DNA of 63,296 nt, counting the filler, from Reclinomonas americana ATCC 50394 (lineage: Eukaryota), in assembly GCA_048213135.1 (NCBI GenBank). It is 4 parts of 3 records of this genome, joined end to end, with 100 filler letters (N's around TTAATTAATTAA, not from the genome) between each part and the next. Parts side by side here need not be neighbours in the genome. Positions count along the whole stretch, not along the records: positions 1 to 25,676 come from PS015513.1; positions 25,777 to 46,432 come from PS015513.1; positions 46,533 to 61,751 come from PS015514.1; positions 61,852 to 63,296 come from PS015518.1. One strand, 5' to 3'. Shown one piece after another: positions 1 through 62,962 of this stretch. How positions within the stretch are numbered: the stretch's first letter is position 1; the number at the start of each line of letters is the position of its first letter. The notes under the pieces were generated by a model, which was given only the letters and a program-made list of their open reading frames with translations, made no database searches and was not told the DNA's origin. The position numbers and the translations under genes were made by a program.

Positions 1-1344
1 TGTGCGCGCATGACAGTGAGAGTGAGTGTCACATTTGAGGATGCTTGAGCGTGCAGACCGACTGGGCGTCGGCGATGCGAGCGGCCAGTGCTGGAGTGGA
101 GGCGTTGAGTGATTGCAGTGAGCCTCTGGCGCCCATGCTGCGGTGTCGATTGCTGTCGCGCAAGGCTCTGGCGGTGCATCAGTGCAAGCGACCGAGTGCA
201 GTGCTGCGCGATAGTTGCGTTTGTCTGTCTGTCTGTGTGCCTTCTCAGCTCCTCGTGCTGCTGTCGAGTTGACGCGTCTTGTCGGTAGCGCTGGCCATGC
301 TGAACTCGGTGTTTGAGGACGATGCGGAGGCGCTGTGGGCGTCGGTGGTGCAGCCGTTTCGAGAAAAGGAGCTGGAGTTGTCATTCTGGGTGGCGTGGGA
401 GGAATCGCTGCCGCTGTCGACGCTATCGGTGGCCACGCGACTGGCGATCTGTCGGCAGTGTGTGCGACTTGGCGAGTACGACGAGGATGTGGTGTTGAGA
501 GTGGTGGCGGCGGAGATGATGAGTCGGCATGGCGATGAGCTGTCGTTCTCGTTGGATGAGGTGTGCTCCGAGTCGATGCTGGGTGCCATGCTGGGCGGCC
601 TCATGGAGCGGTACCCGAACGCGGGCGAGTGGATCGCGTCGGCGTCTCGTGATGCACCCGAGCAGAACATGGTGTACAGTTCCGAGGCCGACGCCGTCCT
701 CGGCGTGTTTCGACGCATTGTGGATCACGGTGAGCACCTCACCTCCCTCCCCCCCCCTCTCTCGCCCCTCGTGTCTTCTCACTGTTGGAGAATGGGTGGC
801 AGGCGAGGATCGGCATCGGCAGGTTCTGCAAGACGACCGCCGTTTCGCTCTCATTCTCGGTTTCTACCTCATGTTTTCACTCAACATGGCCGAGCCGGCC
901 ATGGTGCTGGCACGTCAGCTGGTTGGCCTCGGTCGTTGCGTTGTGCCGTGTGAGTGTTGTTGTGGGTGAGGTTCATGTGCTCACCGCCGACTGGCATGCA
1001 GCCGAGTGGAAGCAGCTGCTGGTCGATCTGCACTTTTTCGATCGCATGCGCCACGTGACAGGCCTCGCCCGCACCCCCGACGAGCAGATTCAGTTGTACA
1101 AGCAGTTCCTGTTGGAGATGGGCTTCACCGAGGGTGAGGTATTTTGCTGTTGTTTTTGTTTTTGTTCTTCGTGTGCTCATCGCGATGCTGCGCGGCAGAC
1201 GTGTTGCCGGAGCGTGCGCCCGTTCAAGACCCGCTGCCACCAGCGCGTCCGGTCATGTCGCCTCTGGTACCAATGTCGGTGGAGTTGGTGCCGGAGCTGC
1301 CGGCTGGCCACCCGGCGAGCGAGGACTTCCCGATACCGCGTTGA
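1..1344 (+). CDS. Hypothetical protein, 3' part (5' end outside the window); about 5 exons
   Basis: Introns 214-288, ~731-790, 935-1001 and ~1134-1198 join the frames into ...LRD-TLAMLNSVFEDD...DH-EWVAGED...VGLG-PEWKQLL...FTE-DVLPER...FPIPR*. No family recognised. Confidence 0.7.
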
Positions 1345-1543
1345 CGAAGAAGATTCAGTGAATACGTACCCCCAGCAGCACAAGGAAGAAGAATCACCAT
1401 GATCGAGCAGGCAGTTGTCTGGCCAGCATCGACGTGCAGTCGTCGCGACATGATCGATCGTCTTCACACACAACGCACGCGGGTTTGAGAGAGCGGAGGC
1501 AGCTGCAACAACACTTCCAACGAATAGATTCACAGGGGAAATC

Positions 1544-2442
1544 ATGAGTGCTGCAACGGTGGCCCGCAATGTTCTTTTGCTCAGCTCGGGCATGTTGTTA
1601 CGAAATTCACACGATTGATTCTGGTGCAGAAAGAATAAGTTTCTCACAACGGTCGTCTTGTCATTGTTGCCAGTGGCCTGAGTGGCCTTCATCATCTCCT
1701 GTTCCCCGCCTCGGCGGCAAGCGTGCTGCTCGGTGCGTGCGCGCGCGTGTGTGTGTGAGTGTGTGTGCACGCAGAAAAGAAGCTCGAACGGGAGAATATC
1801 AGGCAGTTTCTGCGCTGACGTCCGCGCGCGCGCGCGCACGTGCGTGCTGTCGTTGCTGAACATGTGCATGTGTCTGTTGTGCCACAGGCGTCTCCAACCC
1901 CTCAGTGGAGCTCCGCACAGTGCTGCAGGTGCGTGTCAGTCGTTGAGGGTTCTTTCTGTTTGTGGGATCTATTCTTTTTATGTCCGTGGGGGATACAAGC
2001 TCTTCACGACCTAATTCCAACCACATTCCTGCAACTCCGCAGACTTCTGGATGCGCATTCCTGCTGCTGGCCGCCGTGCTGTTCTTGTTGCGTTACGAGC
2101 GAGTGAGCGACACTTCATACACGGACAGTGAGGGAACGAGAGCGCGATGTACATTTTCTTCGAGCCGCCCGATTTGTGTGTACGACCTAAAATGCGCACG
2201 ACAGCTTGCCAATCACCAAGATGGCGCTGCGTGCCGCCGGTACCGGATTCATCATCAGCGGCCTCGGCATGCTGCTGACGTTCTACAACATGTCGGTGGT
2301 CAGCACCATCTGTTGGATCCAAACCGGCCTGCATCTCGGATTTGGCATTGTTCTCCTCACGAATCCGGGCATGCATCTCCCCGCCATGCCACGCCTAATT
2401 CAGGGCAACGGCATTCACCAACCGGAGAAGAAGAACGAGTGA
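1544..2442 (+). CDS. Small four-TM membrane protein with a C-terminal KKxx ER-retrieval motif
   Basis: Five exons give MSAATVARNVLLLSSGMFGLSGLHHLLFP...GVSNPSVELRTVLQTSGCAFLLLAAVLFFLPITKM...QPEKKNE*, with four hydrophobic segments. Donors at 1597 (GTTACG) and 2087 (GTTGCG). Confidence 0.75.
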
Positions 2443-2715
2443 CGGAGGCAAAACGGCAAGGAGAAACGGTTGTGTGCGTGTGTGTGGGCAAGCCAGCGAG
2501 GTGAACAACAAGTGGACGCGTGGAAAGTCAGTGTATAGCTGTACTCCAGGGCATAGGATTATATAACGTCTTTACACATGGGCTAGTTGCGTAACCAAAG
2601 GACAGCGGGTACAGTGCGAAGAGTGGGGAACACAAGGGTAGAGGGAGAGAGAGAGTTAGAGACTGCAAAAGAGTGACACAAACAAAAGAAAAACCATTAC
2701 TCTACAGAGAAACCA

Positions 2716-3644
2716 TTATCGAACATGTGCATGCGCAGTCCGAGATCTCGTCGAACGCGCCACGGCCGCGGAGTTAGTCGTCGTCAACGATGCGGCCACC
2801 GTCTTGCTCGCACATTCTGCGGCTGCGGTGTTGGCATGGGCGGTGGTGGACATCACCGATCGGTAAGGACATTGTTGCAAGGCGAGCAGCGTCTGTTCGT
2901 ACGGCAGTGGCGCAGGCAGTGTGCGATACACGGACTCTGCGCTAGACATGCGTGCAATGGCGCCCGCGTCACCGCTATAGTACAGTTGCACGTCGGTCAA
3001 GTAGGCGCGCTGTTGTAGCAAACAGAGCGGTGATTAGCCCCCGAAGCGCACAGAAAAAAACTCGAGAAACAGAATCTCAGCGGTTCTCACTAGTACCTGC
3101 AGCGCGAGAGATACCGGAATGCATAATGGTACCGAGGAAAGAATAAGAAGAAGAAGGGAAGGAAGGAGGGTGTGGGAAGGAGGAGAGCGCAAGAGCAGCA
3201 GTGCGCGTGTGTGGTGGCTTTGCTGCATTAGGGTAAACAGGATTGGAACTGAAGAATTGGACGCCATTCGCCGACTCAACAGCCACACATCCCTTCCCTC
3301 TCACTCTCTCCCCGAGGGGGAGGAGAGAGCGGGCGTCACGCAACGCGAAAAAGAGACACACGGAAGCGAGAGAGAGAAAAGAAAGAGAGAGAGAGTGTGT
3401 GACTGAGAATCGAATGTCGGGAAACACACACACACACCAGTGACTGCAGGGCCTCGGTCACTCGCGGGTCGTCTTCGAGGCATGCCATCGCGTGTTCTTC
3501 TTGCTGATCAAAAGTCATGTGCGTTTGTGTTTGTGGTGTGGTGGTCTCCTCTCCCGACTTGCTCAAAACAGAAAAAATGTCAACAAATTCAGACAATAAT
3601 TTGTCGACGAACAAAGTTTGACAGAAATCAACAGAAAAAGGCAA
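2716..3644 (-). CDS. Possible hypothetical protein (exon structure unresolved)
   Basis: Coding-looking ORF segments at 2716-3021 and ~3437-3644 separated by GA/CA-repeat intron-like DNA. No motif. Confidence 0.3.
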
Positions 3645-9676: not shown

Positions 9677-12600
9677 TCATCCGCGACGGCTGGAGCCTGC
9701 CAAACCCACCAGCACATAACTCGACACCATGCCGATGCCCTTGACTGCATGCATGTGCCAGCAAAGGTGAGTGTGCGCGAAGGATGGACTATGCTGCACA
9801 CGCTTTACAACCACGCACCTTCCACACTGGCCGATTCAACATCAAACACACCGCGTGTCTTGCGGTGCGTCGCCTGTGTGTTTCACCATCATTGGTCAGC
9901 GACGACGAAGCCAAGTGCTCTTTTTCATCCCCGCTTCTTTCGCCCTCTCACCTCACTGATCTGGATGGCTCCCATGGGTGCGGAGCTCTCCATGCGCGAT
10001 GCCATGTTTACCGAATCTGACGCAAGATGAGAGAGACGTGGGAGAAAACGCGGAGCAATCAGCTGTCTCCAACCCCACTCACCGCCATACAAGTCGAACG
10101 TGCGAATGAGGCCAGCCACGATGCCCGACGTCACCGGGCCAGTGTTCACGCCGATGCGGAACTTGATCTCCAGTTGTCGCTGCGTGCCAAGTCAGACACA
10201 CGAAACACATGCAGACGAAGAACGAGCGGCTTTCACGAAACTCGCTGACACAAGTCCAATATGACCTGCTTGGCAGCCATCGTAAACTCCACCACCGCCG
10301 TGGCATGATCGTGACGCGGCACGTACATGCCCGACACGGCGAGGTATGCCGACCCTACGTGTACACGACACACACGTTGAGTTCTTGTGGGGAGGCTCGC
10401 TCCCTTTCTGTGTGGCACTCACCAATGGTCTTCACTCGCTCGATATTGTGCTGCTTCACGAGTCTGTCGAACGCGCTCAGCAGCACGTGCAACACCTCTA
10501 TCTTCTCCAGCAGCGACACTTTGCCGTCGCCACCCACTGCCCCTGCATGTCAACGCAGTTTGAGCAACACCAAGAAGATGCGATGCGTCTTTCACCCACA
10601 CACGACCACTGCACCTGCGCTGCCGGCTGCGTGCTGCACAGAGAGCACCTTGACAAATGTGCACGTCACTTCTGGGTGGAACTCAAACATGGTTGGCGTG
10701 TCGTCAATTACATGCTGTGGTGCGTCTGTCAGGTTGGAAGCATTCGGCGGAGAGGAGCGCCACATCAACGCACCGCATCAAGCATGTTGAGCGCGCTGCC
10801 GAACGACGAGGCGGTGAGCTTGTCGAGTGCGGGTCGAGGGAATGACACACCGAGCAACTGCGCCAGGCGATATGAGCCGAAAAACACACACACACACACA
10901 CACACTGATAACAACGGAGACCACCAAACCTCCTGCAAGTTGACATTGCGAGTGCGCTGTTCATACATCGCCTGCAGCTGCGAGTTGCGTTCCGAGATGC
11001 GCACCATGATGCGCTGTCGACCTTCCCACGCCGTCTGGAAGCCACGAACAAGCAGCGACACACTACGCCAGCATTCATCAAGTCAACAGGCACATACTCT
11101 TCTGCTCGCAGTACTCGAACGGTGCACGCAACACTTGTCCATCTTTCCGCGCAATCTCCATCTCGCAGCCACACCCCGACTGCACCACGTCGCGAAGAAC
11201 AAGCGGCCGCAGCAGTGTTTGCACGTTGGCGTGACCTGCGCACACCCATCACAGTTGAGGAGGGCAGTCGCAAGAACAGCAAGCACCGTCAGCGACGCAC
11301 CGGTCAGCTCCTCCACCGAGTACCCGAGAAGCCGCGGCACACCCATGTTGCACCACTCCACCTCTCCATTCTCGTCCGTCCACAAGAGCTGTGCACGATG
11401 AAATGGGATCATAAGCAACACTCGTTCTTTCTCTCTCTCTCTCATTAGATCATGGACACGCAACAGCATCGGTGGTCATGGACAGCAGGTTGGTGATTTC
11501 GTCGATTCGTTCCTCGTACGAGCTGCGCACCTTGGCCTCGTCCATATTGTTGCGCACCACTGCACAAAACATGCGCCCTCCCGGCACCATCACATCGAGG
11601 ACGTGGATGCGCACCGCAATCACTGATCCGTTCTTGCACAGCGCCTTCACCTCGCGCCCACTGTGCACGCACACAGTCAGTGGCGATCAACCAAATACTC
11701 TCGCGCCATCGCCATGTAACACCGCAACTGCAATGCCGCAGCGTGAGCTCGTTCACCAGTCTGCGAGTGCGTTGAGAGATACTGTGCCAGGTACCTGCAC
11801 GTACAACCAGCGACGATCAGATCTATATGCTATTACTCATACTCAATTGTCGCAACCTCGCTTGCACGCAACGAATCATGTCGTTCCGAGTGCGGTGCCG
11901 GCACCAGCATGCGAATGTTTCGACCAACCAGCTCGGCGGCGCTCGTGTAACCGAACAGTTGCACGGCAGCCTCATTCACTTCCTGCACAATGCCTTGCGT
12001 GTCGGTGTAGATGAGCCCGTCCGGCAGCGTGTGCACCATGGAAACCGTCTGCGGTAGTGCGATGATGAGCAAAAGCAAGTGGTTGTGCAAACTGTCCACA
12101 CGCTGCGTACCTTGGCCAGCCGCGCCGCGCCCTCTCTCAACGCAACCAACTTGTCTGCCGCCTCCATCATGGTGACGGCAAAGAATCGTCGTCCATTCAC
12201 CTCACACTCCACCACTGACAAGTCGACGGGCACCAGTCCACCGTCTCGATGGCACGCCTGCAGGAGTGCCTCATCAGCAACGGGCACACGCACGATTCTC
12301 AGGGCATGCACGCACCTCAGTGCGGCGCACAACCGTCAGCGGACGCCGTGTGGCTGCCGGTTGTGTCACGTGCCGGCTAATGTGTGCGTCGTGCACGGCG
12401 TGCAGCTGTGCCGGAATGAGAACCTGCACAGTACGATCCACCATGAGCACAGCTACCACCACCACCAGAGAGACACATCATCCGACCGCAAGCACCTTGA
12501 CGTTCTGGCCCACGATATTGTCGGCGGCATATCCCAGCACGCGCGTGACCATGCGATTGGCGAATTCGATAATGCCCTGCGTGTTGCGGCATGCATCAGC

Positions 12601-15600
12601 AACATCTCCCTCAACCACACACCATCGACAACTCCTCCATACACACCGTCTCCCCAGCCAACAGCAGCACACGACCTGTTCACGACTGAAAATGAGAGAG
12701 TGCAGTAGAGACACAACAGCACTGCACAGCAAGACAGGTGCGAAACTTGCGATGATCTCGCGGAACATGTGCTCGTGCTCGTTCATCGCTCGGTTCACCT
12801 CCATCGAGGCGAGCAGTGAATCTGTGTTTCGCTTCCTCTCAGCCCCACATTGAGGATCAACAGAGCTAAACCAGGGCGCCAGCACGCAACGAGGCAGCAG
12901 CTGCAATTGCAGCTCGGCAACGGAGTTGATCACAGTCGTCGGTACGTGCATGAGGGTGCGTTTGAAGAACCGAATTTGCATGTCCATCTCCGCGAGCAGT
13001 GGTCGCAGCAGAAACACCGCCCCAACAAGAGTCACCAGGAGCCCAGTGACCAGCATGGCCTCGGCCAGAAACTCGGTGCGCTGCACAAAGCGGTCCAGGC
13101 CGTCTTCCAGCAGCTGCGATGCGAGCGATGCAGTGAGAGCACTGTTGCCACATTGCGCACATCATCTCCTCCTCTTCCTACCTGGGAACTGGCCGCAAAG
13201 TAGTCCATGAGGATGTACGTCGAGGCCACCAAGAAGTCCGCAAGATCCAGGTCCTTGGCCGTCGGCGGGTCGTGCAGTGTCGAAGCCAGCAAGTCGGATG
13301 CATCCAACACTCTGTTGATCTGCACGCCAGTGTGAGTGAGACATGAGGTGATCACACCCCATCGATCTCCCCCTCCCACACACCAGTTCATGTATCGGCA
13401 GGCACTTGAGCTGTTGCACCCACGACGGATTGGTGGTCACGGCAGCCTCGGCAGTTGTGCATCGCGCTCCGTACAGCAATTTGTGCTGCTGCTCATCAGC
13501 TGCGGCATCCCACCCATTGTCCATGACTTCGTCGACAACTTGTAGGTGTTTCGCTCTCGTCTACGCACGACACGATGGTGCGTGAGTGTTGAGAACACGT
13601 ATGATTGTCAATCCCACGCTATCGTCTCACCGTAGTCACGAGTCCCTGCAAACGTGCTTGGGTCTGTTCGCGCGGCACCAATCCAACCGGATTGAGGTAC
13701 TGCACAGCCACCATGATCAACACTGGAAACGTGGTGGCACGTGACTGTGCGTTCCCCAGCACGGTCATCTCCCGCACAGTCTCTGCCGCAATCGCCGATG
13801 CACCATACCTGATGAGCAAATGTTAGCGCACAGAAGAACAAAAGGATGCACTGTTTCTTCCAGCCACCACCACCACCACCACCACGCAACGACATGCACG
13901 CCGTGGCGACAAAGGCCACGAGCACAATACAGCAGGCACGGAAGAAGATATTGTGCATAAACTGCATGTCGGCGCGCGTGCACTGCGTGGGCAGGTACTT
14001 GTTCGTCACTGTCGTCGACGGGTGCACTCCCTGTGCCCAAGAACAGCAAGTGACAGTCAGCACATGAAACCAGATCTGGACTCCTTCCTTTCCCATCACT
14101 ACGCAACATCACGAGCAGCCTCCGAGGCCTCCAGGTAGTTGAGGTAGTGGTCGCGCATCTTGTGGTGCACGACGCGCACGTCAGCCTTTGGCACCAGCGC
14201 AAAGGCTCGCAGACTGCGAGTCAGCGTGTGACGAATGCCGAGCACCATGGGCAGGAAGGCAAGCATCAGGAGTGCCACACAGAGTCTGCGTGTTCAGGTG
14301 GCACATTAGTTTGTAAATGAATGAGAAGAACGCATACTAGCACGCACCCGCCAGCCAGCGCAAAGTCAATCCACGCTTCGACACCGTAGCCGTTGGCGAG
14401 TTGCACCGTGTGATCGTTGAACTCTTGTGCGATGCGATACACGGCGTCGTTGGTGGCGCCGCCGTTCGCCAAAGCAATGACAAGGTTCTCCTCACGGATG
14501 CTCATGGTGCGCACAGACATGTGGAACACATCCTAGCGGAGAATTGAGGTAAGCGAACTGGCATAGTACTTCTTATTGCAACACCAGCACACCGCACACC
14601 ATGGTGCTGTCGAGAAATCGATAGATCACGTCGATGGTGGGCACCGTCTGCGACACAAGCTGACCACCGATGTTGTCATACACAATGGTGCGGAATGGAG
14701 CAGTGACACTGACGGCGGAGACGTAGGGTCTGGCAACAAGGATACATCACGGTGAGCAACCCATTGAAACCAACAATGCAGCCAATCTCGGCAGCACACA
14801 CCGCGTGGCCAGCTGGTCCAGAATAATACGCGAGGCAGTCACGTTGGCTGCGAGGAACGGCCGCAAGTCATCCACTTGGGCCGCACCGTTGACACCCGAC
14901 AGCGCGGCACTCCAGATGCGCCACGCCAGCAACGTATTGGTGACTGCGTCGACACACACCGTGGACAGGTCGGCGAAAAAGTCGTTGTTGGACTGGAACA
15001 CCGCAGTCATGGAGTACGATCGTGTAAACACAAAGAGAATGGCCACAAGGCACGCCGCGGTCATGATCAACAGCACCCACAGAGCGCGCGTGATGGTCGG
15101 ATTCTGCGGTTACACACTGAGGGCAGAGAGCTCCATGACTTGGCATCATCGTCCCAGAGACAACTGACCTTTTCGCTGACGATTGTGCGGCGCAGCTGCG
15201 CAGAGCTGGTGCTGTCGGCACTCACACCGGAGCGCATGGAACTGCCACCAGAATGCTTGGAGCTGCGTAATGAGAGTGAAAATGGGGGAAGAGCTATATA
15301 CTGCACACATACAACGGTGCTTGCGTTACCTGCCACCTCCCACCGACGAGCCGCGATCGCTCAGCGCGTCGTTCGCATCGTTGCCGGCAAAATCTGCACG
15401 GCATCGAGAGTCAGCAGTGGGGGAAAAGAGGGCGCACACGTGGCTGCGCACGAAACTCAGTTTCTTCGACGTGCGGCTCCTCGACTACAACAGCAAAGTG
15501 AGCATCGCGTACAGACAACGAAACAAAACAACCAAAAGAAGACAGCACTCACTTCGCCACGTGACAATTTGACGGCGCTGCGTCGCGTGGCTTCCTCTGT

Positions 15601-18473
15601 CGTCTCCTCCGCTCCAGCAGTGTCCACTTCTGTCGGCGATGAACGCTGATGAGCACAGCAGCAGTCGGCGACAGCAGAAGGACAAAGGACACTGCTGCAC
15701 CTTTGGCCGTCTGCCAGACGGACTTGCTCGGGCGCACGGCAATTGTCTCCACTTGTGGAATGTCATCGTCGCCATCTGAGACTGTGCAGAAATGCAAGGT
15801 GAGCAACCTTGCGTCATTGACGGCAACTCGATGCAACGATCGCAACTGGTGCTGCAGCTGCTGGAGATGGTATCGGTCTCGGTCTCGTCGTTCGGGTCGT
15901 GCTCTGCCATGCACAGGTCGTCGCCGGCACTTGATTCTGCATGGTCAAACATGACGCGGCGCAGTTGCTGCGTAGGGCAAGTGGATGAGCCAATAGAGTG
16001 AATATGCATGAAAAACATGATCGACAGCGCACCGCTGAGGCCTCCTCCAGCGCAAACAAGCGTTCCTTGACACGGTTCTGCGTGCACAAGCCGTCGGCAT
16101 TGGAGGTCATCTGTTCGGCAAGGTCGTCCAGTCGCCGACTTCCGAGTTCGTCGTTCTTGATCTCGGAGGTGAACTGCGTTGCATGAGTACAAGGCAGTCC
16201 AGCTCAATCAAACCTCAGATGACATAAGAATACCTGTGCGTACCACAGTACGAGCTCGGCCTGATCCGGGAACTCATCCAGCAGCCTCTTGAAACCCTCT
16301 TCGCACTTGCGTTCCTGCTCCCGGAGCGTCAGCAGGAGCGACAACACCCTGTCCTCTGTGTGCGCAAACAAACAAGTCAGTCGAGCTGCTCACTGGCGTG
16401 CGCACCAACCAACATGGACGCACCACGTCCAGCCTGCTCCAATTGTCGCCACACGGACATGAGCACCACGTAGCACTGGCACCACTCTTGGTGCACGGCC
16501 GCCAGCCGCACCCGGTACAGCTGACTCTTGAAGTTGACATCCTGCGCTAATGTGCTCACAATCTCGGAAACCACGCGCCGCATATCCACCGGCAACGTCG
16601 CCTCCATTTCGTTGCGTGCGGCAATGTCGGCAATCATCTGCTGCGCCTGCCTCACATCCGTGTCGAAGCTCCACATGTACAGAGCACTCAGCAGCGCCAC
16701 ACAGTCGGCCTGATTCACATTTTCCACAAAGTTCATCCGCCCTGTTGACAACATTGTGCGTGAGGCACACATGCGCACAAGTACACACAAACACACACAC
16801 ACACACACACACACCAAGCTCGAAAATGTCCATGGCACGGTTCCACGGATCGGATGCCGACACAGGTGGGAGTCTGGCGGCCAGCTCCACCGACCACACA
16901 TTCGGGAAGAGTCTCTTCAGATCCGCCTCCAGGTTCTCTCCGCTGGCACTGCTGCCACCACTCAACGCACCGCGCTGCACGATAAAGAAAGAGGAGATGA
17001 GGAATTGTGGAGGCAGGAAAGTGCAGCCAGGCAAAACACACCAAGTATCGTGCAGTCGGACTCGACAAGTCCGCGAGACTCGACGACGACGACGACGACG
17101 ATGCAGCAGTGGTGGCCGAGCTGCGCACCACGGCGGCTGCAAAGACGTCCATGTGCCGACAAACGTTTCGGTATCGAAGGTGAGTGGCCAGCAGGCCGCA
17201 CACACTTCCCAGGCACAGCCCGCCGACCGCCACCGCCGCCTGCGTGAGCCACGACGACGAGAGGAGCAGGCGAGCGGCGGTGGGCACGAGAGCCAGATAC
17301 ACGCCCGCGCAAGCAGCCAGTGTCACCGCGGCGCACAAGGCGGCGGCCAGCGGCGCCGACACCCGTCCGTGCACCGGCAAGTACTTGAGCACGCCGATGA
17401 AGAGCAGCAGCGCGCCGAGCGCAGCGGCCACCATGTGCACCAGCGGGAGTGCGTCGGCCACAAACGTGTGTGTCACCGCCAGCAGCACGCGCAGTACGTT
17501 GAGGGCGGCAATGTAGCGGCCGCTGAGGATGCCGGAGGACCAGAGACGGGAGGTTGGCTTGAAGTCCAGCGAGCTGGCAGAAGAAGAAAAGTGAGGGGAG
17601 AGGGAGAGGAGGGGAGAGGAGGGAAGAGGGAAGGGGGGGAGGGAGAGAGAGGAGGGGGAGGAGAAGAGAGAGAGAGAGAGAGAGAGAGNNNNNNNNNNNN
17701 NNNNNNNNGAGAGAGAGAGAGAGAGGCACAGTGTGCGGACGCAACAGCAGTGGCACAATGCAGCTGAGTGTGGCGAGCAGCAGAGAGAGAACGAGCCCAA
17801 CGGCACCGAGGAACACATTACTCGGGTCGTTGCATCCTGTGGCATGTGAGATGAGTGGAAGTGAGGGGGAGGAAGAGTGGGAGAGAACAGCGCAACTCCA
17901 CGACGTGGAATGCACAGTGGCGCTGAGGTGTTGCAGTGTGCGAAAGTCGCAATGCAGTGGGCGAATCAACAGCAGCACCACTGCAGTCAGCAGCGGTCCC
18001 ACCGCCAGTGCCAGCTGTTGCCATTCCGTCACACGTGAGTGAGTGCGAGAGAGAGAGACAAGAGAAAACAGGAAAAGACGACGCACCAGAAATCGAACGA
18101 CGCTAGCGACTTGTCGGATTCGTGAGTTTGGTTGTTCGGTGGTCGCCATCTGTTGCGTGTTGCGGCACTGGCGCCAGACGAGGAAGAGAAGCAGAGTGAC
18201 AGACACCGCGGCAAAGACCCACGCCACGTACAAGCGCGATATCGACATCTGCCCAAAGCGAAAAACAATCATCAGCGCGCATGTTGTAATGATAGCATTG
18301 GTGAGTATTGCACATACCATTTGCGGCAGCAGAGTCGCGCCAGTGAATAGGCTCTCACTGGCACCGCTGGGGAACACGGACGGCACGAACACTTGGGCCA
18401 GCACGCTCAAGTGCAGCCACACGAACGCCGCAGCGTCGAGCGGGGTTATCTGCGGAGGCACACGAAAAAGCAT
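9677..18473 (-). CDS. Large multi-TM protein with three PAS domains and a C-terminal class III nucleotidyl cyclase domain (TmcB-like architecture); about 35 exons
   Basis: PAS segments GIIEFANRMVTRVLGYAADNIVGQNV, LPDGLIYTDTQGIVQEVNEAAVQLFGY and DALLWTDENGEVEWCNMGVPRLLGYS. Cyclase motifs VKTIGSAYLAVSG, FRIGVNTGPVTSGIV, TFDLYGDSVNMASRMES and VKGIG. Many hydrophobic exons. The start codon is uncertain. Confidence 0.85.
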
Positions 18474-44306: not shown

Positions 44307-46400
44307 TCACACCTTGTAGTACGCTCCCATTCCCTGCGTATCGTCGTGCTCTACCTTGGCTTGGGCCATGGACCGCTTGCTGCCCGACCGTCGCCGACGC
44401 CGGCACCACCACTTATCCCAACATGATGCCGAGATCTGCTGCACGTCGCCGCTGTCGCCGCGGTGCAACAGGGAGGTGGCCGAGTGCGTGCGACCCGAGG
44501 CCGTGTCGTCAAACGGGTCGCCGCTCGACTCGCCGTCATCGTCTCGCGTGAAGCTGTGCGGGCAGATGCGACGGCCGATTCCACGCACCAGATCGGTGAA
44601 GAGAGTGCGGCCGACTCGTCGCACACCGCGTCGGCTGCGATGCAAACCGCGACCCTCGCTCTTCAGCTGGTACACCAAGCGGTTGCAGTGTTGCGAGAGG
44701 CGGAAGCGCGGATACAGATCGCTCTGCATGCTCACGTAGACGTGCCGCTGAGCCTCGTCAAATGTGCGCGCATGTGTCCGTTTCTGCGCAAAGTCTTCCA
44801 CAATGGCCGATCGCAGCACGTCTGCCCATGGGACGCAAGTGAGCAACTCAAGTCGCTGGAGACAGATGATGTGGTGTGCACGCGTACCTGAAATGTTGAT
44901 CTCTCGCATCGACCCGTCGGCAATGAACCTGTCGAAAATGCTCTGCGCCAGCCCCTCCCACGCCGGTGTGCCCTCTCTTCGGTGCAATTCGTCGACCTAC
45001 ACATACACACACACTCCCAGCATGAATCGACGAGCCACAATGTGGGTGTGCGGCGCCGCAGACGCAACAGCCAAGTAAAACATCAAGTTCTCCTCGGCAT
45101 ACGATTCTTCGAGGTAGGCCTCTGTGGACACACACCCCGTGGTGAGAAAACACACATGAGAAAGAGAGAGAGAGAGCGAGAGAGGGAGAGAGAGGGAGAG
45201 AGAGAGGGAGAGAGACGAATGGAGAGAGAGAGGAGGGGTGCTCGTGGAGGGAGAAAACACGCACCGAAATAAAAGAGACCGAGTGGGTCGCGAATGAGGT
45301 CCTTGACTTGCTTTGGTAATACCTGCACGGGGGTGAGTGAGTGTGTGACTTGCAGGTGAGAACAGCCATGCAGCAGACCGTGGTCTCTGTGAGTCCAAAC
45401 ACCAGAGCAATTGCCAGACCTGCAACAATCGAAGGGTGAGGACAAGGACCTGAGCTTACCCTTCTTGTCTCTTTCTACTCCTCCTCCCTTCCATGTCCCC
45501 TCCTCTTTCTCTCCTTGCGCTATCCCCTCTAATCGTCTCTCTTCCGCTTTTCCCTCCTCTCTGTCAGATTTCAAAGGACATATAGCACTCACCGCTGAGG
45601 CCCTTCGAGACAACGGCAAACCACACCAACACGTTGGTGGCCGACGTGGCATCGACCGAGTCCATCAGGCGGTACGCCAGTGGGAACACCCAAAACGCCA
45701 CAAAGAGCACAATGTACCTGCTCCATCGGTGAGCATCACGACACGGACAAACGTGACTGGCCACCACGCCGCAACGCAACACAATGGTCTGCTTCTTGGC
45801 GCGGATGGTGGCCAGGTACACAGATGGCGGAATGGAGCCGAGATTGGGTGAGCCGCGGAGAATCATGGACATGCGCATGGCCGGCTGATCGCCGTTGCGT
45901 CGCGAGGCCACTGCAGCAGAATGATTGTAAAAATAAGCAACGCAGGCGATAAGGAATAGATACACTGCTGGAGCACGCAACGTGAAGTGCGGTTCGCGGC
46001 GCCCTCGAGAATGTGCTGCTCAAAACCGTCAGAAGCAAGAACAAGGAGATGAGTCGAAGAGGGCGGCGCTTGATACTCACCGAGCGGACCATCATCCACG
46101 ACGCTTCGGTGGAGTTGCGCGGTTGCTTGTTTCGGGCTGCTGTGGTGGCGGGGGCTAGAGACGCCTCGCCTCGCGGCGTCGTGACCATCTCGGACATCTC
46201 CACTGAGCGGTCGACGGCCAAGCGTGGCGTTGAGACAGGTGTCGCCGGCGCCGTCGGCGGCAGCAGCACCACGGTTGGGGGCGCAAATGTCACGGTGGCC
46301 TCGCGCCTCGGCGCCGCCGGTGATGTAGGCACGGAGGAGCTGGGATCGGTGGGACGCGGTGACATCATGGGCGACTCTGCCACGGCTCCAGTCGACAGTG
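44307..46400 (-). CDS. GPCR-like transmembrane protein fused to a C-terminal RGS domain (5' part missing)
   Basis: TM6/TM7-like IVYIVLFVAFWVFPLAYRL and VWFAVVSKGLSGLAIALVFG. RGS motifs LIRDPLGLFYFEAYLEESYAEENLMFYLAV, IFDRFIADGSMREINIS and FDEAQRHVYVSMQSDLYPRF. Confidence 0.85.
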
Positions 46401-46488: not shown

Positions 46489-46532
46489 NNNNNNNNNNNN
46501 NNNNNNNNNNNNNNNNNNNNNNNNNNNNNNNN

Positions 46533-47841: not shown

Positions 47842-47925
<84 letters not shown>

Positions 47926-52700: not shown

Positions 52701-55700
52701 NNNNNNNNNNNNNNNNNNNNNNNNNNNNNNNNNNNNNNNNNNNNNNNNNNNNNNNNNNNNNNNNNNNNNNNNNNNNNNNNNNNNNNNNNNNNNNNNNNNN
52801 NNNNNNNNNNNNNNNNNNNNNNNNNNNNNNNNNNNNNNNNNNNNNNNNNNNNNNNNNNNNNNNNNNNNNNNNNNNNNNNNNNNNNNNNNNNNNNNNNNNN
52901 NNNNNNNNNNNNAGGGAGAGAGAGAGAAGGGAGAGAAGGGGTCGTGAGTGAGTGAGTACGAAAATATGTACAGTCATCGTGGGCTCACCTTTGCTTCGGC
53001 ATGTTGCAGTCCGTTCCAGCAGGCCATGCTGCGCACGCAAGACATTGCCGCCTCGTTCGAGGGCTGCCTCTCCAATGTGTTCGCGGACGAGAAGGGAGTC
53101 GGTGGCATTGTCGTCTTTGGTCTCAATGTCAAGTCGCGCGGCGAACAGAATCGGCGCGGAGTGTTGTGTGCGGCGCAGCTTGCTGCCGTCCTCACCGAAC
53201 TTGGATTCACCGAGGCAACCATTGGCGTCACGTTGCGTAGTCTCATTCTTGTCGAAGTGCGGGTCGGCACCACTGACCAACAACCACACAGATGTGGATA
53301 CACGTACACGGGCACGGTCGGATCGTCCACTCGACGACTCGACTTTACTCTGCTCGGCGACGTGGTCAACACCGCCGCAAGACTCATGGCTGCCGTCAGC
53401 AAGATGAGCATGAACATCAAAGGTGGGATGTGCACCGTGACCTAGTGCCTGCCGTCGTCTCCGCTCACACACCCACTCGCTCGCAGGGAACGCCAAGGTG
53501 CTGCCGGTGCTGTGCGAAGAGCCCGTGTGTCAGTCGTCTCTCGGAAGTCAGCGCATCGGCAGCACAATGTACGGCCTCGATCCGCACCCGCTGTCGCTCA
53601 AGCTGAAAGGTGTGTGCAAGTGCATCACCTCTCCGGTGGCGAATGGAGTCTCATGCCCTACTTTGTTTGTGCACAGGCAAGTCGTCCGATGTGCAATGCT
53701 ATCGGCTCTTGTACTACTCGGAAAAAGCGGCTGTGTCATCGGTGGTGAGCGTCAAGCGTGGCGCCAAGGTGCAGGCGCCGCGAGTCTCCGACGAATTCAT
53801 GTTTGTTGGCCACGCTGCTGAGTTGTCGGCACTGCGTTCCGAGCATGCCCGTGCGCGTGCGCTCCACGCCACCTTCACCAAGGCGCAAGCATCGACCACC
53901 AACACAGCCTCTGGTTCCTCGGCACAGGCTGGCGGATCGCCCACGGAGAGCGTCTCACAGTTGCCGCCGCCACTCGGCTCGTGCGGTCGCATGGTGGTGC
54001 TGCTGGGTCCGCCGGGAGCCGGTGCCTCGACTCTTGTTGCGTTGTGCTGGCCGTTGGTCTCGCTCAGTTGTGTTGCTGAGCATGAATTGCGCCACAATGC
54101 AGGTTCGCCAATTCGTCAAGGAAGCGACGCCAGTGAATACGGCCAAGGCGGCCGCCTCACAAAGCAAAGGCACGGCCAAACCGAAAAAGGGCGTCGGCCG
54201 GTTGCGCGGCCATGTTCGCTTTGACTCGCAGCTGAAGATGCCTGTTTCTGTTGCGTGCTCCGCCTCCATTGATGGTCTGCACATCTGGTCACCATTTGTG
54301 CTGACCACTTGTGGCACTCTCGCACACACAGTTGCCGATCGTGATGGTGTCTAGCGACAGCATCCAGATGGGTGGACCGTTTTCGTCATGGAAAAAGGCA
54401 TTTTCACAGCTTCTCGCCTCCACGCTCTCTTCTGATCGCTACCGCAGCGTTGCTGGGTGCGTTTCTCTCCGCTTGCAGCTACGTTGCTCTGTGCACTCAT
54501 TGTTTGCGCAGCCTGTCGTCTCGCAATGGAACATCGCGAGCCTCGCTTGTGCAACACCTCCTGCTGGAGTTGCAGATGCGCTCGTGGGCCCCGCTGTTGA
54601 ACCCGGTGCTGGACACGGGATTCCGCGATGCGCTCCCGCTGCAGAATCTGTCGCAGCGCGAGACCGATGAACGGCGCCTCCACTTGGCCGTCATGCTCTT
54701 TGACCACATGCTCAAGTATGTGTACGGTGAGTCCGATTGATTGGCAGCTCGAAAGGTGAATTTGCGCGCGTGCTCACGTGTGGCGGCGACACAGGATCAC
54801 TGCATGGCTACGCAATTCTGGTGCTGGAGAATGCCCATATGATGGACGAGTGGTCACTTCGTCTGCTCAAGACGTTCCTGCTCACCAATCTGGAAGTCCG
54901 TGGTGCGCCACTCCGTCGCCTGCCCTTCTTCATGGTGGCGTGCCTGCGCTCGGCGTTGTTTATCGACCGTGAGTTTGCGGACACGGACGCCGCTGAATCC
55001 GAGGTCCGACGTGGTCTCGGCATTCCGCGCCGTTCAATGGAGCACGTGACGGTGTGTGTGGGGTGTGTGCTGGGCAGCTCTTCTTGGTTGGTGCCTGACT
55101 TGTTGACATAGATTGTACCCATTCGCTCGTTCGACCTGACGGAGTGCGGCTTGTTCCTCGCTCAGTTCACTCAGGCCGCCGTCTCCGAGCAGGTGAGTGA
55201 ATGTAAAGAAAGAAGAGGGAAATAGTTGTGGTCATGTCATGAATCTTGTGTGCGCTTGCAGGTCACTGCGGAGCTGTATCGTGGCACCAAGGGCTGCCCC
55301 GGTCATCTGGACCTCATGACGCGTGCTCTGCTGAAGAGCAATGTGCTGGCCATCGACAATGGCGTCTGTCGGGTGCGTGAGCCAACATGGCTGCTCTTTC
55401 GCGCGCCTGTGGTGATTTTCTGACTGTTTTCCCTTCCAGTTCTCACGCACAGGCTACGAGACCGTGTTGGATGCGTCGAACAATCTGGGTGCACTGCTCG
55501 AGCACCAATTCGACTACCTCAAGCACACGGAGCAAGACGTCTTGCGAATCGGTGCGTAGTTCATGGAACCGATCGCGAGTGAGTGCGATGGGTGCGTGTC
55601 GCTGACATACAATACGTGCAGCGAGCGCGATTGGTCAATCATTCACCGTGCACTTCTTGTACGCGGTGTACGCCTCGGTCTATCGGGACTCGACGTGTAC

Positions 55701-58700
55701 AGCAGAGGAGATGGGAGACATTCTGGAGAGTTTGGTGAACGAAGGCCTGCTGGTGCACTCGCAGAGCGGCAAGTACATGCAGTCGGCCGGCGGCTCCGAC
55801 GACGAAGATGAGGAGGAGGACGACGCGAGCGATGGGTTGCTGACCGACGACGACGGCGAAAGCGAGCAGCTGCACTACGAATTCCATCACAGCAGCACGC
55901 GCTTTGCGCTCTACCACCAGATGCTGCCGTCGCGTCGCAGCAAGTGCCATCGCGTGGTCTACGATTTGCTGAAGCAGCGCATTGCGGTGCGCGGACTCTC
56001 AATGTGTTGCTTTCCCTGCCGCCATGTTTCCGTTTCTGACTCTGGTGATCGCTGAAAACAGGAGCGCACACACAATGGCGAGTCGTACAATGAGCAGATG
56101 CAGTCTCTGGTTGGTGCAACTGTGGTACTGTTTTTTTCTTAATAATGTGTTGTCTCACCAGCAGTCACAGCTCCCCGAATTGTCGCACCACGTGTACTAC
56201 AGCCTGGTCGACAGCATCTGCGAGTATCCGAAGGAGACGCGCGCCACAAGTGCGTCGTGTTTGAAGTGTTGAAAAGGGGTTATTTTCTCATCTCTCCATT
56301 GCTCCACAGACGCTTTGCTGCGGCAGCAGGTAATGGAGGCCGCGAACTTGATGCGACAGCATGCGTTGAACTTGGTGGAGGCCTGCATGTATCGCGATGC
56401 TATCGCCACATTCGACAAGGCACTCCGCCTCATTCACGAGTGCGGCTACGTCAAGAACGACAGCGAGTTCCAGTACCTCGAGTTCACTCTGGTCAACGTC
56501 GTCGGTCAGTGTATGATCTCTATCGGTGGCAACGTGGCGGAAACCGAGCGCGCGCTGACCCGCGCTCTGTCGCTGGTGCCGGCACCCGTGGCCGTTGCGT
56601 CGATTTGTGCTGCGCTGCTGAGATACCATCAAGAGTGAGGTTCTTACCCATCAACAGGGCCAGGAGGACGCATTCGTGCAGCCGCGCTACGACGTGCTCA
56701 GCAATCTGTGGAGTCTGTACACGACGCACGGTCACCGGCACCCGACAGCCGATTCGAACAAGTTGTGGGATCAGCTGCTTCGATTGATTCCAAAGCTGGC
56801 GGACGAGAAGCGCTTGATTGACGTCAATCGGTGAGTGTTCCACAGCAGCATCACCTCTGTGCCTAGGTGATTGTATTCATCGCTTCACTGCACAACAGCA
56901 TCGGCACGCTGCACTTGGCGGAGATGGGCGACTTGCACGGCTCGCTCACGTACTTCCGCGAACTGAGCAACATGTACCAGCTGGAGAAGCATCGCGACAT
57001 TCTGGTGGAGTACCCGCGCGTGCTCGATCCCGGTTTGCACGCGTACACGAGGGCGAGTGTCAATTATGTTTTGCTGGGCGAGAACGGCAACGCCATTCGG
57101 TATCTGGAGCTGGCGTTGGAGATTTGCCGTGCCATCAGCCACAACCTCAGTCGCGAGTACTTTTTCCTGCGTGCGGGGTTCGTCCTCAGCTCTGTCAGTC
57201 AGCTAAAGGAGCTGGCGTCGGTGGTGGAGGAAGGCATGCGTATGGCGGAGGAGAACGAGATGGTCGAGTGCTTCCAGGTGTGCCTGTTCTTCTCGTACTT
57301 GGTGGAGTATCACAGTCGAGTGCGGGCGCGCGAAGGTTTGTCACAAAAGGTGGAGTTCTCGTGCTGGTGGCGATGCTCAGTTTGTTTGCGCAGCGCTCGG
57401 CGAAGCGAGTGGCTCATCGGCGGCAGCCGCGCCGGTGCAACTGACGGTGGTCCAGACGGCGGTGGCAAACGCCAAGCAGCAGCCCGGCGGCAGTCGCCTC
57501 CTCAAGGACCTGTTTCAGCGTCACAAGAGCCCGGTGGTGCGCACGCCCGAGGCACTGCTGACTGTGATGACGGAGCAAGTGGACCAGGTGCTGAAGAACT
57601 TGCCCGAGGCGCCGTTTTTGATTGTGCCTCTGGCCGATCTGCTGATTGAGAACGGACGGTTTGCCGTTGCCGGCCGCCTGCTGTCGTTTGCACTGGGTCG
57701 CCTGCGGGCGCACGATTCGCACACGATGCCGTGGATTGCGCTGCAGCGGCGGGTGGGGTGGGTGTGCTGTCGGCGGCTGATTCGGTGGACCGATCCCGCC
57801 AATGAGGATAAGACGATTGAGCCGGTGTTGGTGCGCATAAGGGGGAAGGGAGGGAAAGGGAGGGGCAAGGGGAAGGAAGGGGGAGAAGACAAGGAGAAAG
57901 ATAAGGTGGAGAGTGAGAAGAGACAGGGAGGTAGAATGAGGGGAAAGAGAAGGGCGGACGAAAAGGGAGAGGGGACGGAGAGACAAGGGGAATTAGCCAA
58001 GGGTGCATGCGATGGCTGATGTGCAGAAGTGCACACTGAACAAAAAGACGAAATAGCACTTGTGCAGCAAACGAGTGCGTGTTTGTTGACTTTGATGGAA
58101 TCACGCAGGAATCCGAGTGGCAAAGTGCGATCGACGAGTTGGAGCTGGCGTTGCAGTCGACGAGTCTCGAGTACCGACTGCGGCGCGAGAGGGAGCGATG
58201 TGCGGCTATCCTGTGCTGCATTTGGGCACTCACCAGCCGCCATCACGAAGGGTGCGTCGTGCCGTGCGGAAGAGTTTATTGTGAGCGCACTCTTTAACGC
58301 GATTTGTTGTGCTATGCAGACTGCTGACATGGGCTCGCCAACTTCGAGTGCGTGGGGGCTTGTCTCTAATTGCATTCGTTGATACTTGTCTCAAGTCCTT
58401 GTCGCAGGGCAAGAACACGGACATCGATCTGCCGCCACCGGTGCGCCACGACGCAGCGCTGACGGCGTCGCTGTTTGAGAACATGCCAGACTCGATTCGG
58501 CGTCTGCGCAACAACCTTGTCACCAAGTCGCGTCTGGCGAAAATGACACAAGAGGTAACTTATGTGAGAGAGAGGGAAGAGTTGACTGTGAAGCTCACTT
58601 TGCGGTTGTGGCAGCTTCGCGATACGCTGTGGGGCAGTCTTGTGGACCTGCTGGCCAAACACTTTGAGGACATGACGTTCAAGAGGCGCGACAGCGCGTT

Positions 58701-60875: not shown

Positions 60876-61712
60876 CTGGGGGAGGGGGAAGAGGGAGAAG
60901 GGAGAGGGTGAGAGAAGGGAGCGGAAGAGAGACAAGGAGACGGAAAGAGAGTGGGGGACCGGGAGTGGAAACAGAGAAGAAGTGGGGAAGGAATATGAAG
61001 CGGGTGAGGAGGAGAGAAAGGAGGACAAGTAGAGGGGGAAAGAAGCGGGGCAACCGGAGTGGAAAACAGAGAAGAAAAGAGGAAGGGAAGGAGCGGATGA
61101 GGGGAGAATGAGGAGGAGAGGGAGAAGAGAGACGGGAAAGGTCGATGGAGACAGTGCGAGAGGAAGAGGAGGAACAAGGAAAAAGTAAGGAGTGAATGAG
61201 TGGGTACGAGGAGAAGGGGGAAGGGAGAGAGAAAAAAGGGAAAGAAGTGGGCGGGGGCAGGAGAAGGGGAAAGGGGGGATAGGAGAAGGGGGAAGGGGGA
61301 GTGGGGGTGAGCGATTGAACAAAGGCGGAGAGAACGAGGCAGGGGAGGGACTGAGAAAGGGCGGGGAACGAGAAAGAGGGGGCAAGTGCGGGCACGGGGA
61401 ATAGAACGAACATTCGTAGAAAAGGGGGAAAGGGAGAGGAAGAGGCAGTAGAAAGAAGACGGACATACACGACAAGGAAGATGAAAACGACATGCGGGAG
61501 TTGAGGAGACACCGAGAGAGTGACAATTCCCCAAGCACAAAGGCGCATGCCAAGGCAAAGGCAGGTGGCGGCTGAGATGAAGGGAGACACCAAATGCGAA
61601 AGAGATTACTCCCCCACAAACTGAAGGAACAGCAGTTGCGTGTCTTCGTGAAAGGAAACAATGAACCAAGCGGCTATCATGACACTTGCGAGAGAAACAA
61701 GCTGTACCCCAT

Positions 61713-61748
<36 letters not shown>

Positions 61749-61795
61749 CTCNNNNNNNNNNNNNNNNNNNNNNNNNNNNNNNNNNNNNNNNNNNN

Positions 61796-61807
61796 TTAAT
61801 TAATTAA
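61796..61807. other. Artificial scaffold-concatenation linker
   Basis: N44-TTAATTAATTAA-N44. Confidence 0.95.
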
Positions 61808-62470
61808 NNNNNNNNNNNNNNNNNNNNNNNNNNNNNNNNNNNNNNNNNNNNAGAGGGAGAGGGAGAGGGAGAGGGGAGAGAGAGAGACGAAAACGCAGGT
61901 CGCGAAGAAGTGGTGGAGGATGCACTGACGAGACAAGGCGTGAAGTCTGCATCGGACGGGGTTGTTCCTACTATCAGCATTTCTCTTTGTCTGTCTTGTC
62001 GTCAGTATGTATCATTTCATCAGTACCTCAGATGTCTTTCTATCTCTCCGCCTGTATATCTTGCACACAGAATCTCGCTGAGGGTCAACACTCTTTTCTT
62101 GCAGCAGGATGCTTTGCTCCAAGTGAAGGAGTAGAAGAAGCACTTCCATACTTCATATCCACGTCTCCCTTGTGGAAGAAGGCCCTTCCACACACAAACA
62201 CCGCCCCCTAGTGTCCAATGTCTCTCAGTAACGGTCTCCCTCTCTCTGTCTGTCCATCCGCCTGTCTATCGCGGTGTCTATCTATCTCCTGTTTCTCCAG
62301 CAACCGGTGCAACTTCAGCAATCTCAACACAACGGACACTGAAACTCACTCAATTTCTCAATTCTCGCCTCTCCCCTCCCTTCTCCTACTGTCCTCCCTT
62401 TCCCCCTTCCCCTTCCCACTCTTTCCCCTTTCCCCCCCCCCTCCCACGCAACTCTATCCCTCTCCACCAC

Positions 62471-62962
62471 CTCCGGCGCCATCCAATACGGCGTCCCAAT
62501 CATGGTGTTGCGCTTCGAGTACGAGTTGAACATTTGCGCCGACACGCCAAAATCCGCCAGCTTCACCTCGCCGCGCGTGCCCAGCAGCAGATTGCCGCCC
62601 TTGATGTCGCAGTGGATCATGCGTCGCGAGTGCAGATACACGAGACCCTTCAGCACCTCGCGCACCACGTACGCAATGACCTCCTCGGGGAACGGCGCCT
62701 CCATGGCCTCGTACACGTGCGCCACCGAGCCGCCACCCAGGTACTCCATGGCGATCCACAGACGCTCGGGGGTTTGGTAGGCGCCGAGGAAGCGCACAAT
62801 GTTCGAGTGGTCACAGGCTCTCATGAATTCGATTTCCTTGCGGAGGACCTGGTGGTGTGAAGGGGGTGAGGGAGAAGGGGGAATATGAGGGGAAGGGGGG
62901 ATGAGGGGAAGGGGGATGAACGCAACGTCCATGCCTTCGGGGGTGAGGTCGAGGGGGAGAAC
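62471..62962 (-). CDS. STE20-family protein kinase, internal exons
   Basis: KEIEFMRACDHSNIVRF, LWIAMEYLGGGS, IHCDIKGGNLLL, KLADFGVSAQ and KRNTMIGTPYWMAPE. Confidence 0.92.

Follow-up and report, generated by a model that had tools for sequence, protein, structure and literature searches.

The results of this work suggest that, in the 63,296-base stretch of Reclinomonas americana ATCC 50394 DNA analysed here (assembly GCA_048213135.1; hereafter the window), introns open with two related kinds of 5′ splice site (donor), an ordinary one of the form G/GTGHGT and a second, shifted one of the form H/GTTGCGT (H = A, C or T; the slash marks the exon-intron boundary). As the original prediction had proposed, the shifted donors are almost confined to exons that do not end in G: among the predicted introns, the last base of the exon (position -1) is G in 2 of the 45 shifted donors versus 47 of the 72 ordinary ones (Fisher p = 7e-12; odds ratio for donor class by the exon's last base ~40), and the association of this base with donor class is thus confirmed on predicted introns. 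We interpret both classes as seen through one recognition window, which would meet GTTGCGT in the shifted register already published for human donors, and we put the probability of this reading at about 0.5.

The GTTGCGT motif in the raw sequence

GTTGCGT is present in 43 copies in the window, 21 of them on the + and 22 on the - strand, where a third-order Markov model predicts 12.0; this makes it the most enriched 7-mer once simple repeats and the TTAATTAA linker are put aside; enrichment is comparable for GGTGCGT (37 against 15.1 expected) and GGTGAGT (29 against 10.8). Its copies are preceded by C in 15 cases, T in 15, A in 10 and G in three, the latter at 12146(-), 27226(+) and 36775(-), so that the raw counts already hold the contrast, with G standing before GTGCGT in 37/94 (GGTGCGT) versus before GTTGCGT in 3/43 (GGTTGCGT). 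Many copies are followed, 55-85 nucleotides (nt) downstream, by a CTSAY branch-like motif (S = C/G, Y = C/T) and CAG, and 29 of the 43 are donors in the set of gene models described below. About ten of the remaining copies are probably there by chance, six of them being antisense to gene models, in agreement with the 12 that chance would provide.

Two further copies, at 6159 and 40263, look donor-like and lie in genes outside the model set. The copies at 10984(+) and 16611(+) are antisense to well-supported models and are followed by good branch and acceptor signals after 128 and 72 nt, respectively; they may be chance occurrences or belong to introns of antisense transcripts. The window itself has a G+C content of ~54% and 14 runs of N, and its 100-base spacers (25677-25776, 46433-46532 and 61752-61851) each consist of 44 N, TTAATTAATTAA and 44 N, i.e., artificial six-frame-stop linkers of no biological meaning, which is why TAATTAA heads the list of enriched 7-mers.

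Two classes of donor sorted by the last base of the exon

Introns were predicted by our own dynamic-programming exon/intron gene model, which combines codon log-odds trained on the window with an explicit intron length term and with splice signals made up of matrices for acceptor and branch and a donor matrix of two components restricted to intron positions +1 to +9, the exon's last base being absent from the scoring throughout. The resulting set comprises 19 gene models scoring at least 40, with 149 introns between them, after removal of three models (two antisense to better ones and one low-scoring). The predicted introns are short (about 60-80 nt) and have their CTSAY branch ~18 nt upstream of CAG, and the window is intron-rich eukaryote DNA. 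The 45 shifted donors are 29 GTTGCGT and 16 variants (GTTGCG followed by C, A or G, GTTTCG followed by T or C, GTTACGT, GTTGAGT and GTTGTGT), the 72 ordinary ones are those of the form GTGNG, and the rest are 17 with GT then A or G outside GTGNG and 15 of other kinds. Third positions of the predicted codons are G in 43%, C in 32%, T in 15% and A in 11%.

The contrast at -1 recurs in other sets of donors. It is found for exact motifs only (G in 36/54 ordinary versus 2/29 shifted donors, Fisher p = 1e-7, the ordinary count becoming 32/46 after removal of donors embedded in (GT)n runs), in a donor-blind version of the gene model (27/38 versus 3/30, p = 4e-7), in donors common to both models (33/43 versus 1/28), and in a frame-consistent set chosen by signal alone (15/20 versus 2/14). 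Seen in reverse, a shifted donor opens 2 of the 65 introns whose exon ends in G versus 43 of the 84 whose exon ends in A, C or T. Among the other donor kinds, G occupies -1 in 9/17 of those with GT then A or G and in 7/15 of the remainder. The original prediction was right about 36775 having G at -1, and wrong in taking it for the only such donor, as the one at 12146 (aagttg/GTTGCGT) is a second; these two are the exceptions of the main set.

The deficit of G in front of shifted donors exceeds what the composition of exons would produce. Given the reading phases of the 45 donors, exonic NGTT sites predict 10.6 G and NGT sites 14.0 (two seen; p = 6e-4 and 1e-5, on baselines taken from our own gene models with small counts of 54, 32 and 222 sites), and the two are also below the 17/72 with which G occurs at -2 of ordinary donors (p = 0.009). 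Since it falls under both, G at -1 looks avoided, beyond being unneeded.

In the intron, ordinary donors read G1 T2 G3, then A (32%), C (36%) or T (32%) at +4 but never G (0/72), followed by G5, T6 (75%) and G7 (67%), whilst shifted donors read G1 T2 T3 G4 (87%) C5 (93%) G6 T7 (82%) G8 (51%), the ordinary +7G thus recurring one base further on. On the exon side, -2 and the positions upstream of it have no clear preference in either class. Both classes are otherwise alike, with median intron lengths of 68 and 70, CAG at the 3′ end and, 18 nt from it, branches of the forms CTCAC, CTGAC, CTCAT and CTGAT; 15 of the 19 gene models contain the two side by side, e.g., in a PAS-cyclase gene whose 26 model introns comprise ten shifted, 14 ordinary and two of other kinds. 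This mixture, along with the shared lengths, branches and CAG, points to one spliceosome handling both.

It had also been proposed that shifted donors free the coding sequence from splice constraint, which is true over the gene set but less so for each shifted donor, where -1 amounts to ‘anything but G’. Taking all 149 introns together, G at -1 is found 65 times where the composition of codon positions would give 51.4, so that the constraint is weak. Codons are indeed constrained by ordinary donors (9/19 with G at -1 in phase 2, versus a background of 19%), and shifted ones exert no push towards G (0/12 in phase 2 and 0/13 in phase 1).

Two observations on ordinary donors belong here. Those lacking G at -1 do not compensate with C at +4 (6/25 versus 20/47, p = 0.13). 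In addition, donors within (GT)n runs, such as 16808(-), 40593(+) and 35871(+) (t/GTGTGTGT), have an ambiguous boundary and raise the number of ordinary donors without G.

Shifted donors as probable splice sites

GTT donors are probably real splice donors. The donor-blind model, which knows GT only, over-predicts (236 introns), and its commonest donor hexamer is GTTGCG (28), ahead of GTGTGT (16), GTGAGT (13) and GTGCGT (9). We also picked acceptors from their signal alone and flanking reading frames from coding potential alone, and found that splicing from the G of GTTGCGT as GT..AG joins both best frames in 14 of the 15 testable sites, versus about one third in the controls (58/176 for GTC sites and 277/756 for all GT sites).

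Protein families agree. In an exon-by-exon Pfam scan, the methyltransferase profile PF10237 continues unbroken across the variant intron t/GTTGCGC at 24970..25034 (+, 65 nt), with 8-58 before it and 59-117 after, and its spacing also fits at the next shifted intron, a/GTTGCGT at 25228..25288 (+, 61 nt; 59-117 before, 121-165 after). Bax1-I (PF01027) is likewise unbroken across c/GTTACGT at 19727..19810 (-, 84 nt; 99-124 before, 125-195 after), and profile spacing fits at a/GTTTCGT, 10180..10241 (-, 62 nt; PF00211, 57 ... 98), close to an ordinary intron, g/GTGAGT at 10017..10082 (-, 66 nt), flanked by positions 98-127 and 129-149 of the same profile. For the intron c/GTTGCGT at 39075..39138 (-, 64 nt), in an ADP-ribosylglycohydrolase gene (PF03747 35-184 before, 196-287 after), the spliced product scores 352.7 bits against a hidden Markov model (HMM) of its homologues, and the open frame is kept only by length-compatible splices; this test resolves length modulo 3 only, all length-compatible shifts scoring 351-356 bits.

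Under the GT-AG rule, cleavage before the GU at +1/+2 is the sole boundary that fits the predicted introns, and the boundaries of both classes are exact modulo that rule. Use of the second GT of GTTGCGT is ruled out by the 5-nt frame change it would cause, by the frame test and by the continuity of Pfam profiles. We also reject a start at TT that assigns the G to the exon, since the acceptor would then have to be other than AG, and no base is conserved directly behind the AG of shifted introns (G 14, T 12, A 11, C 8; n = 45). U12-type introns have a /RTATCCTT donor (R = A or G) and a TCCTTAAC branch near the 3′ end; membership of that type is ruled out by the GTTGCGT donor, together with a CTSAY branch at 18 nt and a CAG just as in ordinary introns. 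A mobile, introner-like family is ruled out too, as the longest match in an all-against-all blastn of 137 introns was 27 nt, every match inspected was a simple repeat and the sole match between two shifted introns was 13 nt long.

Recognition of the two classes

The alignment of G/GTGCGT with /GTTGCGT on which the original prediction rested holds up. Sequences of the form G-x-TGCGT are enriched only when x is G (37 against 15.1 expected) or T (43 against 12.0), and not when it is A (8 against 9.1) or C (22 against 23.2), whilst among those of the form GT-x-GCGT only x = T is enriched, the counts for A, C and G being 0, 9 and 23 against 2.4, 12.7 and 20.6 expected. The motif counts thus suggest that the signal would be a seven-base window, G-K-TGCGT (K = G/T), with the cut made before whichever GT is present.

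In the mechanism we propose, the window G-K-T-G-C-G-T would be slid by one base between the two forms, the first intron G of the second form sitting at the place of the exon's last G in the ordinary one. U1, or whichever small nuclear RNA (snRNA) first reads the donor, would most likely pair with both in one register, and cleavage would then be fixed at the sole GU of the window. An exon ending in G would keep GTGNGT, and one ending in A, C or T would mostly carry GTTGCGT; because the forms differ by one intronic T, an intron could switch between them by gaining or losing that base with its coding sequence untouched. The shifted register is favoured here over a bulge register since the latter keeps the pair between -1G and C9 of U1, and no preference for G at -1 is seen. 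The U at +3 does not discriminate between the two, as the bulge register at +2/+3 needs it as well.

Several points weigh against this interpretation. All introns are predictions of our own simple gene finder, with this window alone as training data. G precedes any GTTG in 13% of the 657 such sites in the window, and 3/43 is not significant against this raw baseline, so the earlier claim that the rule argues against chance stands relative to the phase-aware exonic baseline and fails relative to the raw one. RNAduplex energies were computed with two assumed U1 5′ ends, the standard one and a Mastigamoeba-like one of the ACGUAC type, from both of which the host U1 may differ. They make c/GUUGCGUG, which is paired in shifted or mismatch form, weaker (-0.6 and -5.3 kcal/mol with the standard and the ACGUAC-type U1, respectively) than c/GUGCGUG (-2.5 and -8.4), and g/GUUGCGUG, by way of the bulge register, at least as strong as the forms without G; nearest-neighbour energies, too, make GGTTGCGT stronger than HGTTGCGT. 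With this ranking, pairing energy alone leaves both the frequency of the class and its avoidance of G unexplained. The idea that the intron's own +1G substitutes for the -1G contact is supported in part, as regards the register, but duplex energies offer no reason for the class to exist or for G to be avoided; the re-registration of cleavage by U6/U5 put forward in the same prediction would come later. Moreover, the shifted register would set -1 opposite U10 and -2 opposite G11 of U1, yet A stands at -1 in only 27% of shifted donors, -2 is only mildly pyrimidine-rich (C 29%, T 31%), and no signature of pairing is seen beyond +1. The two classes do not seem to be read identically either, because C is found at +5 of 93% of shifted donors versus a free choice of A, C or T at the corresponding +4 of ordinary ones. 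Finally, the ACAGAGA of U6 would pair poorly with GCG at +4 to +6 unless one base bulges.

Within a single U1, the avoidance of G could be accounted for if the shifted register were the productive one and G at -1 were selected against for drawing U1 into the bulge register.

A rather unlikely alternative, though one that the energies would suit, is that a second U1 snRNA species or a dedicated factor reads GUUGCGU with a fully complementary 5′ end (e.g., with A for C opposite +2), so that only the ordinary U1 would benefit from G at -1. The single-U1 energy model disfavours the shifted class, and the tightness of that class relative to the ordinary one at +4, +5 and +7 would be expected if all seven bases pair. 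Altered U1 5′ ends are described for Entamoeba and Mastigamoeba, and a standard along with a modified U1 for Physarum (Roy and Bowser 2022, bioRxiv 10.1101/2022.06.08.495308). On the other hand, an Rfam gathering scan of the window gave 0 matches, i.e., no U1 gene, no other snRNA and no member of any other Rfam family; a perfect match predicts indifference to the base at -1, yet G is depleted there; and the two classes are neighbours within genes and share their 3′ signals.

A more far-reaching version, which we regard as doubtful and offer tentatively, has two donor ‘dialects’ running in parallel and toggled by gain or loss of the +3 T to follow the base at the exon's end. Their readers would be either two U1 species differing at one 5′ base or a single U1 that takes its register from the position of the G, and G at -1 would be avoided for pulling U1 into an unproductive register.

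Even less probable, in our judgement, is that no change of register takes place, GTTGCGT being simply an intron-side signal (for a protein or for U6) strong enough for the exon side to be dispensed with, and the scarcity of G at -1 reflecting rare GGTT and small numbers. In other eukaryotes, as the splice-site modelling literature has it, the strength of a donor on its exon side is traded against that on its intron side, and the weak donors of the window do lean on -1G as usual in such a trade-off (the 7/15 and 9/17 given above); the 13% of G before GTTG in the raw sequence also favours this explanation. It does not predict the shortfall from the phase-aware baseline nor that from the -2G of ordinary donors, and the exact one-base offset between two enriched motifs, along with the match between +7G and +8G, would be unexpected.

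Very improbable is the bulge register, in which U1 would pair canonically (+1G with C8), one U of +2/+3 would be bulged and GCGU would pair as in GTGCGT. It is known in human donors, with 68 predicted +2/+3 bulge sites in Table 3 of PMC4856993, it requires the U at +3 that is observed, and it is the choice of RNAduplex for g/GUUGCGUG. By leaving C9 free for -1G, though, it predicts a preference for the very base that is missing, and the shifted form would always be worse than GTGCGT, with no reason for it to open 30% of introns. Least of all do we believe in an artefact of the gene models or of the earlier picking of sites: introns are all predicted, the ordinary donors without G at -1 include eight dropped as lying in or adjoining (GT)n runs with ambiguous boundaries, and the probable non-donors include the six antisense copies, but -1 took no part in the scoring, and the same contrast recurs in the raw counts, the donor-blind model and the signal-only, frame-tested set.

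Comparison with known systems

Human shifted-register 5′ splice sites were reportedly treated by Roca and Krainer in 2009, and bulge registers of the pairing between U1 and the 5′ splice site are said to have been the subject of Roca et al. in 2012. According to Tan et al. 2016 (PMC4856993), shifted and +2/+3 bulge registers of U1 are experimentally established in human cells, the model oligonucleotide for the shifted register is ACA/GUCAAGUAUA, with an exon end other than G (its Table 2), and certain bulge registers seen in vitro go unused in cells, possibly through U1C. The shifted donors of the window resemble the human shifted-register sites in keeping GU at +1/+2 with the consensus slid by one base, which would put +1G opposite C9 of U1, in the non-G end of the exon and in predicted cleavage at the GU. 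They differ in number and uniformity, the human sites being a small minority and those here making up 45 of 149 predicted introns around a near-invariant heptamer, and also in favouring neither A at -1 nor C at -2, with G at -1 seemingly avoided; the pairing is here deduced from sequence. With human bulge donors at +2/+3 they share the GUU start and a downstream match to the consensus once one U is skipped, but the bulge register keeps the pair of -1G with C9 and so predicts a preference for -1G, which is present in 2 of the 45 donors here.

In Archamoebae, the donor is GUUUGU(U) with a U1 of ACAAAC in Entamoeba and GUGCGC with a U1 of ACGUAC in Mastigamoeba, according to bioRxiv 10.1101/2022.06.08.495308. 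The likeness to the window lies in the +3 U (Entamoeba), the +3 G and +4 C (Mastigamoeba) and the lineage-wide departure from GUAAGU, along with the idea that the RNA that reads the donor has changed and not the introns alone. There, one donor form dominates, whilst here two forms share the same genes, sorted by the exon's last base.

The window also resembles the trade-off mentioned above between -1G and positions +3 to +6, in that donors without -1G carry the stronger intron-side motif; that trade-off is graded, however, and what is found here is a discrete one-base insertion and a second sharp motif, with the large odds ratio already given.

The kind of recognition involved is thus already known, from human shifted and bulge registers and from Archamoebae donors, and what would set the window apart, pending RNA confirmation, is the size of the class and the rule that sorts it. 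Full-text searches for the two heptamers, GTTGCGT with intron and GUUGCGU, gave no title on splice signals among the matches listed, and neither these searches nor those on pairing registers turned up a description of a genome with a slid-by-one donor as second major class sorted by the exon's last base. If RNA bears the prediction out, about a third of this organism's introns would be served naturally, by one simple rule, through a non-canonical U1 register so far proven only for a small minority of human sites, and the fixing of the cleavage site after U1 leaves, the slack of U6 and the co-evolution of snRNA variants with donor classes would all become testable. It would likewise be a route by which splicing signals stop constraining codons, as the -1 counts over all introns suggest. 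Should the two-dialect version be true, flexibility of register would have evolved genome-wide and lifted the splice constraint on codons, and U6 would have to accept an extra base at ~30% of donors. In practical terms, a gene finder that relies on one donor matrix would penalise the +3T and mis-splice ~30% of this organism's introns, for which a two-class donor model is needed.

Predicted introns and their genes

Apart from those already located, the shifted introns are the following, all from the gene models; the donor is GTTGCGT unless spelled out, and the small letter is the exon's last base. On the + strand they lie at 214..288 (a, 75 nt, phase 1), 935..1001 (c, 67 nt, branch CTCAC and CAG), 29999..30462 (c, 464 nt, with a less certain acceptor), 35975..36044 (a, 70 nt), 36154..36222 (the variant a/GTTGCGA, 69 nt), 42545..42736 (the variant c/GTTGAGT, 192 nt, less certain) and 43227..43297 (c, 71 nt). 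Further along are 53163..53214 (the variant t/GTTGTGT, 52 nt, weak), 53232..53486 (c, 255 nt, acceptor less certain), 54036..54102 (t, 67 nt), 54250..54331 (t, 82 nt, branch CTGAC and CAG) and 56594..56657 (c, 64 nt).

On the - strand, the PAS-cyclase gene (9677-14505), with exons mostly 20-70 codons long, codes for a protein in which PAS domains precede an adenylate/guanylate cyclase domain (PF00989, PF13426 and PF00211, as single-exon matches). Besides the intron at 10180..10241, its shifted introns are 11063..11132 (t, 70 nt), 11389..11464 (t, 76 nt), 11661..11728 (the variant a/GTTGCGG, 68 nt), 11795..11872 (c, 78 nt), whose donor is at the end of a PAS exon (also seen by Pfam), 12049..12146 (g, 98 nt, the exception with -1G that had been missed), 12676..12746 (the variant a/GTTTCGC, 71 nt), 12822..12890 (c, 69 nt), 13809..13890 (c, 82 nt) and 14031..14107 (t, 77 nt).

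Then follow 15394..15456 (the variant a/GTTTCGT, 63 nt), 15782..15846 (the variant a/GTTGCGA, 65 nt), 17574..17745 (t), which crosses a 20-N gap and has an uncertain acceptor, 17837..17896 (the variant a/GTTGCGC, 60 nt), 18450..18708 (t, 259 nt, acceptor less certain), 20377..20451 (c, 75 nt) and 20520..20573 (the variant c/GTTTCGT, 54 nt). The Bax-inhibitor gene offers a second ordinary example, g/GTGAGT at 19401..19512 (-, 112 nt). Of the same strand are 32069..32135 (the variant c/GTTGCGC, 67 nt), 32588..32652 (the variant a/GTTGAGT, 65 nt), 34435..34513 (t, 79 nt), 36716..36775 (g, 60 nt, the -1G exception first named), 36874..36939 (the variant c/GTTGCGC, 66 nt), 36984..37055 (the variant t/GTTTCGT, 72 nt), 37199..37256 (t, 58 nt), 44997..45068 (t, 72 nt), 45718..45780 (t, 63 nt) and 45911..45981 (c, 71 nt).

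The last two concern a kinase. The exon at 62453-62848 (-) is closed by the donor a/GTTGCGT at 62452 (Pkinase 46-171), whose intron, modelled as 61572..62452, crosses a gap, the donor alone being placed. The intron upstream of this exon is 62849..62926 (c, 78 nt), and the model has only ATGGAC before it. The exon starts at Pkinase position 46, and what precedes the 62926 intron is solely low-complexity sequence rich in C and T (intron and upstream stretch together, 62849-63296), for which reason the kinase N-terminal lobe would be outside the window or past its end.

The window's proteins are themselves absent from the protein database, the best matches being 57-58% identical for the ADP-ribosylglycohydrolase and 63% for a methyltransferase exon. 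A metagenome scan for more related DNA with the 569-amino-acid exon at 50215-51921 returned 598 pattern matches, of which 0 were confirmed. The ADP-ribosylglycohydrolase gene (38502-39938, -) has best relatives that are 50-58% identical, ~308 amino acids long and mostly from bacteria or metagenomes, including metagenome-assembled genomes of Verrucomicrobiota, Gammaproteobacteria and Anaerolineae; if the gene did come from bacteria, its GTTGCGT intron at 39138 would have been gained later. Finally, a run of at least 37 bases (GTTGTGTGCGAG...GGGAAGGG) is found at 40437 (+) and again, identical but inverted, at 46569 (-), the second copy abutting the linker gap; the pair may reflect overlapping contig ends or an inverted duplication of local origin.

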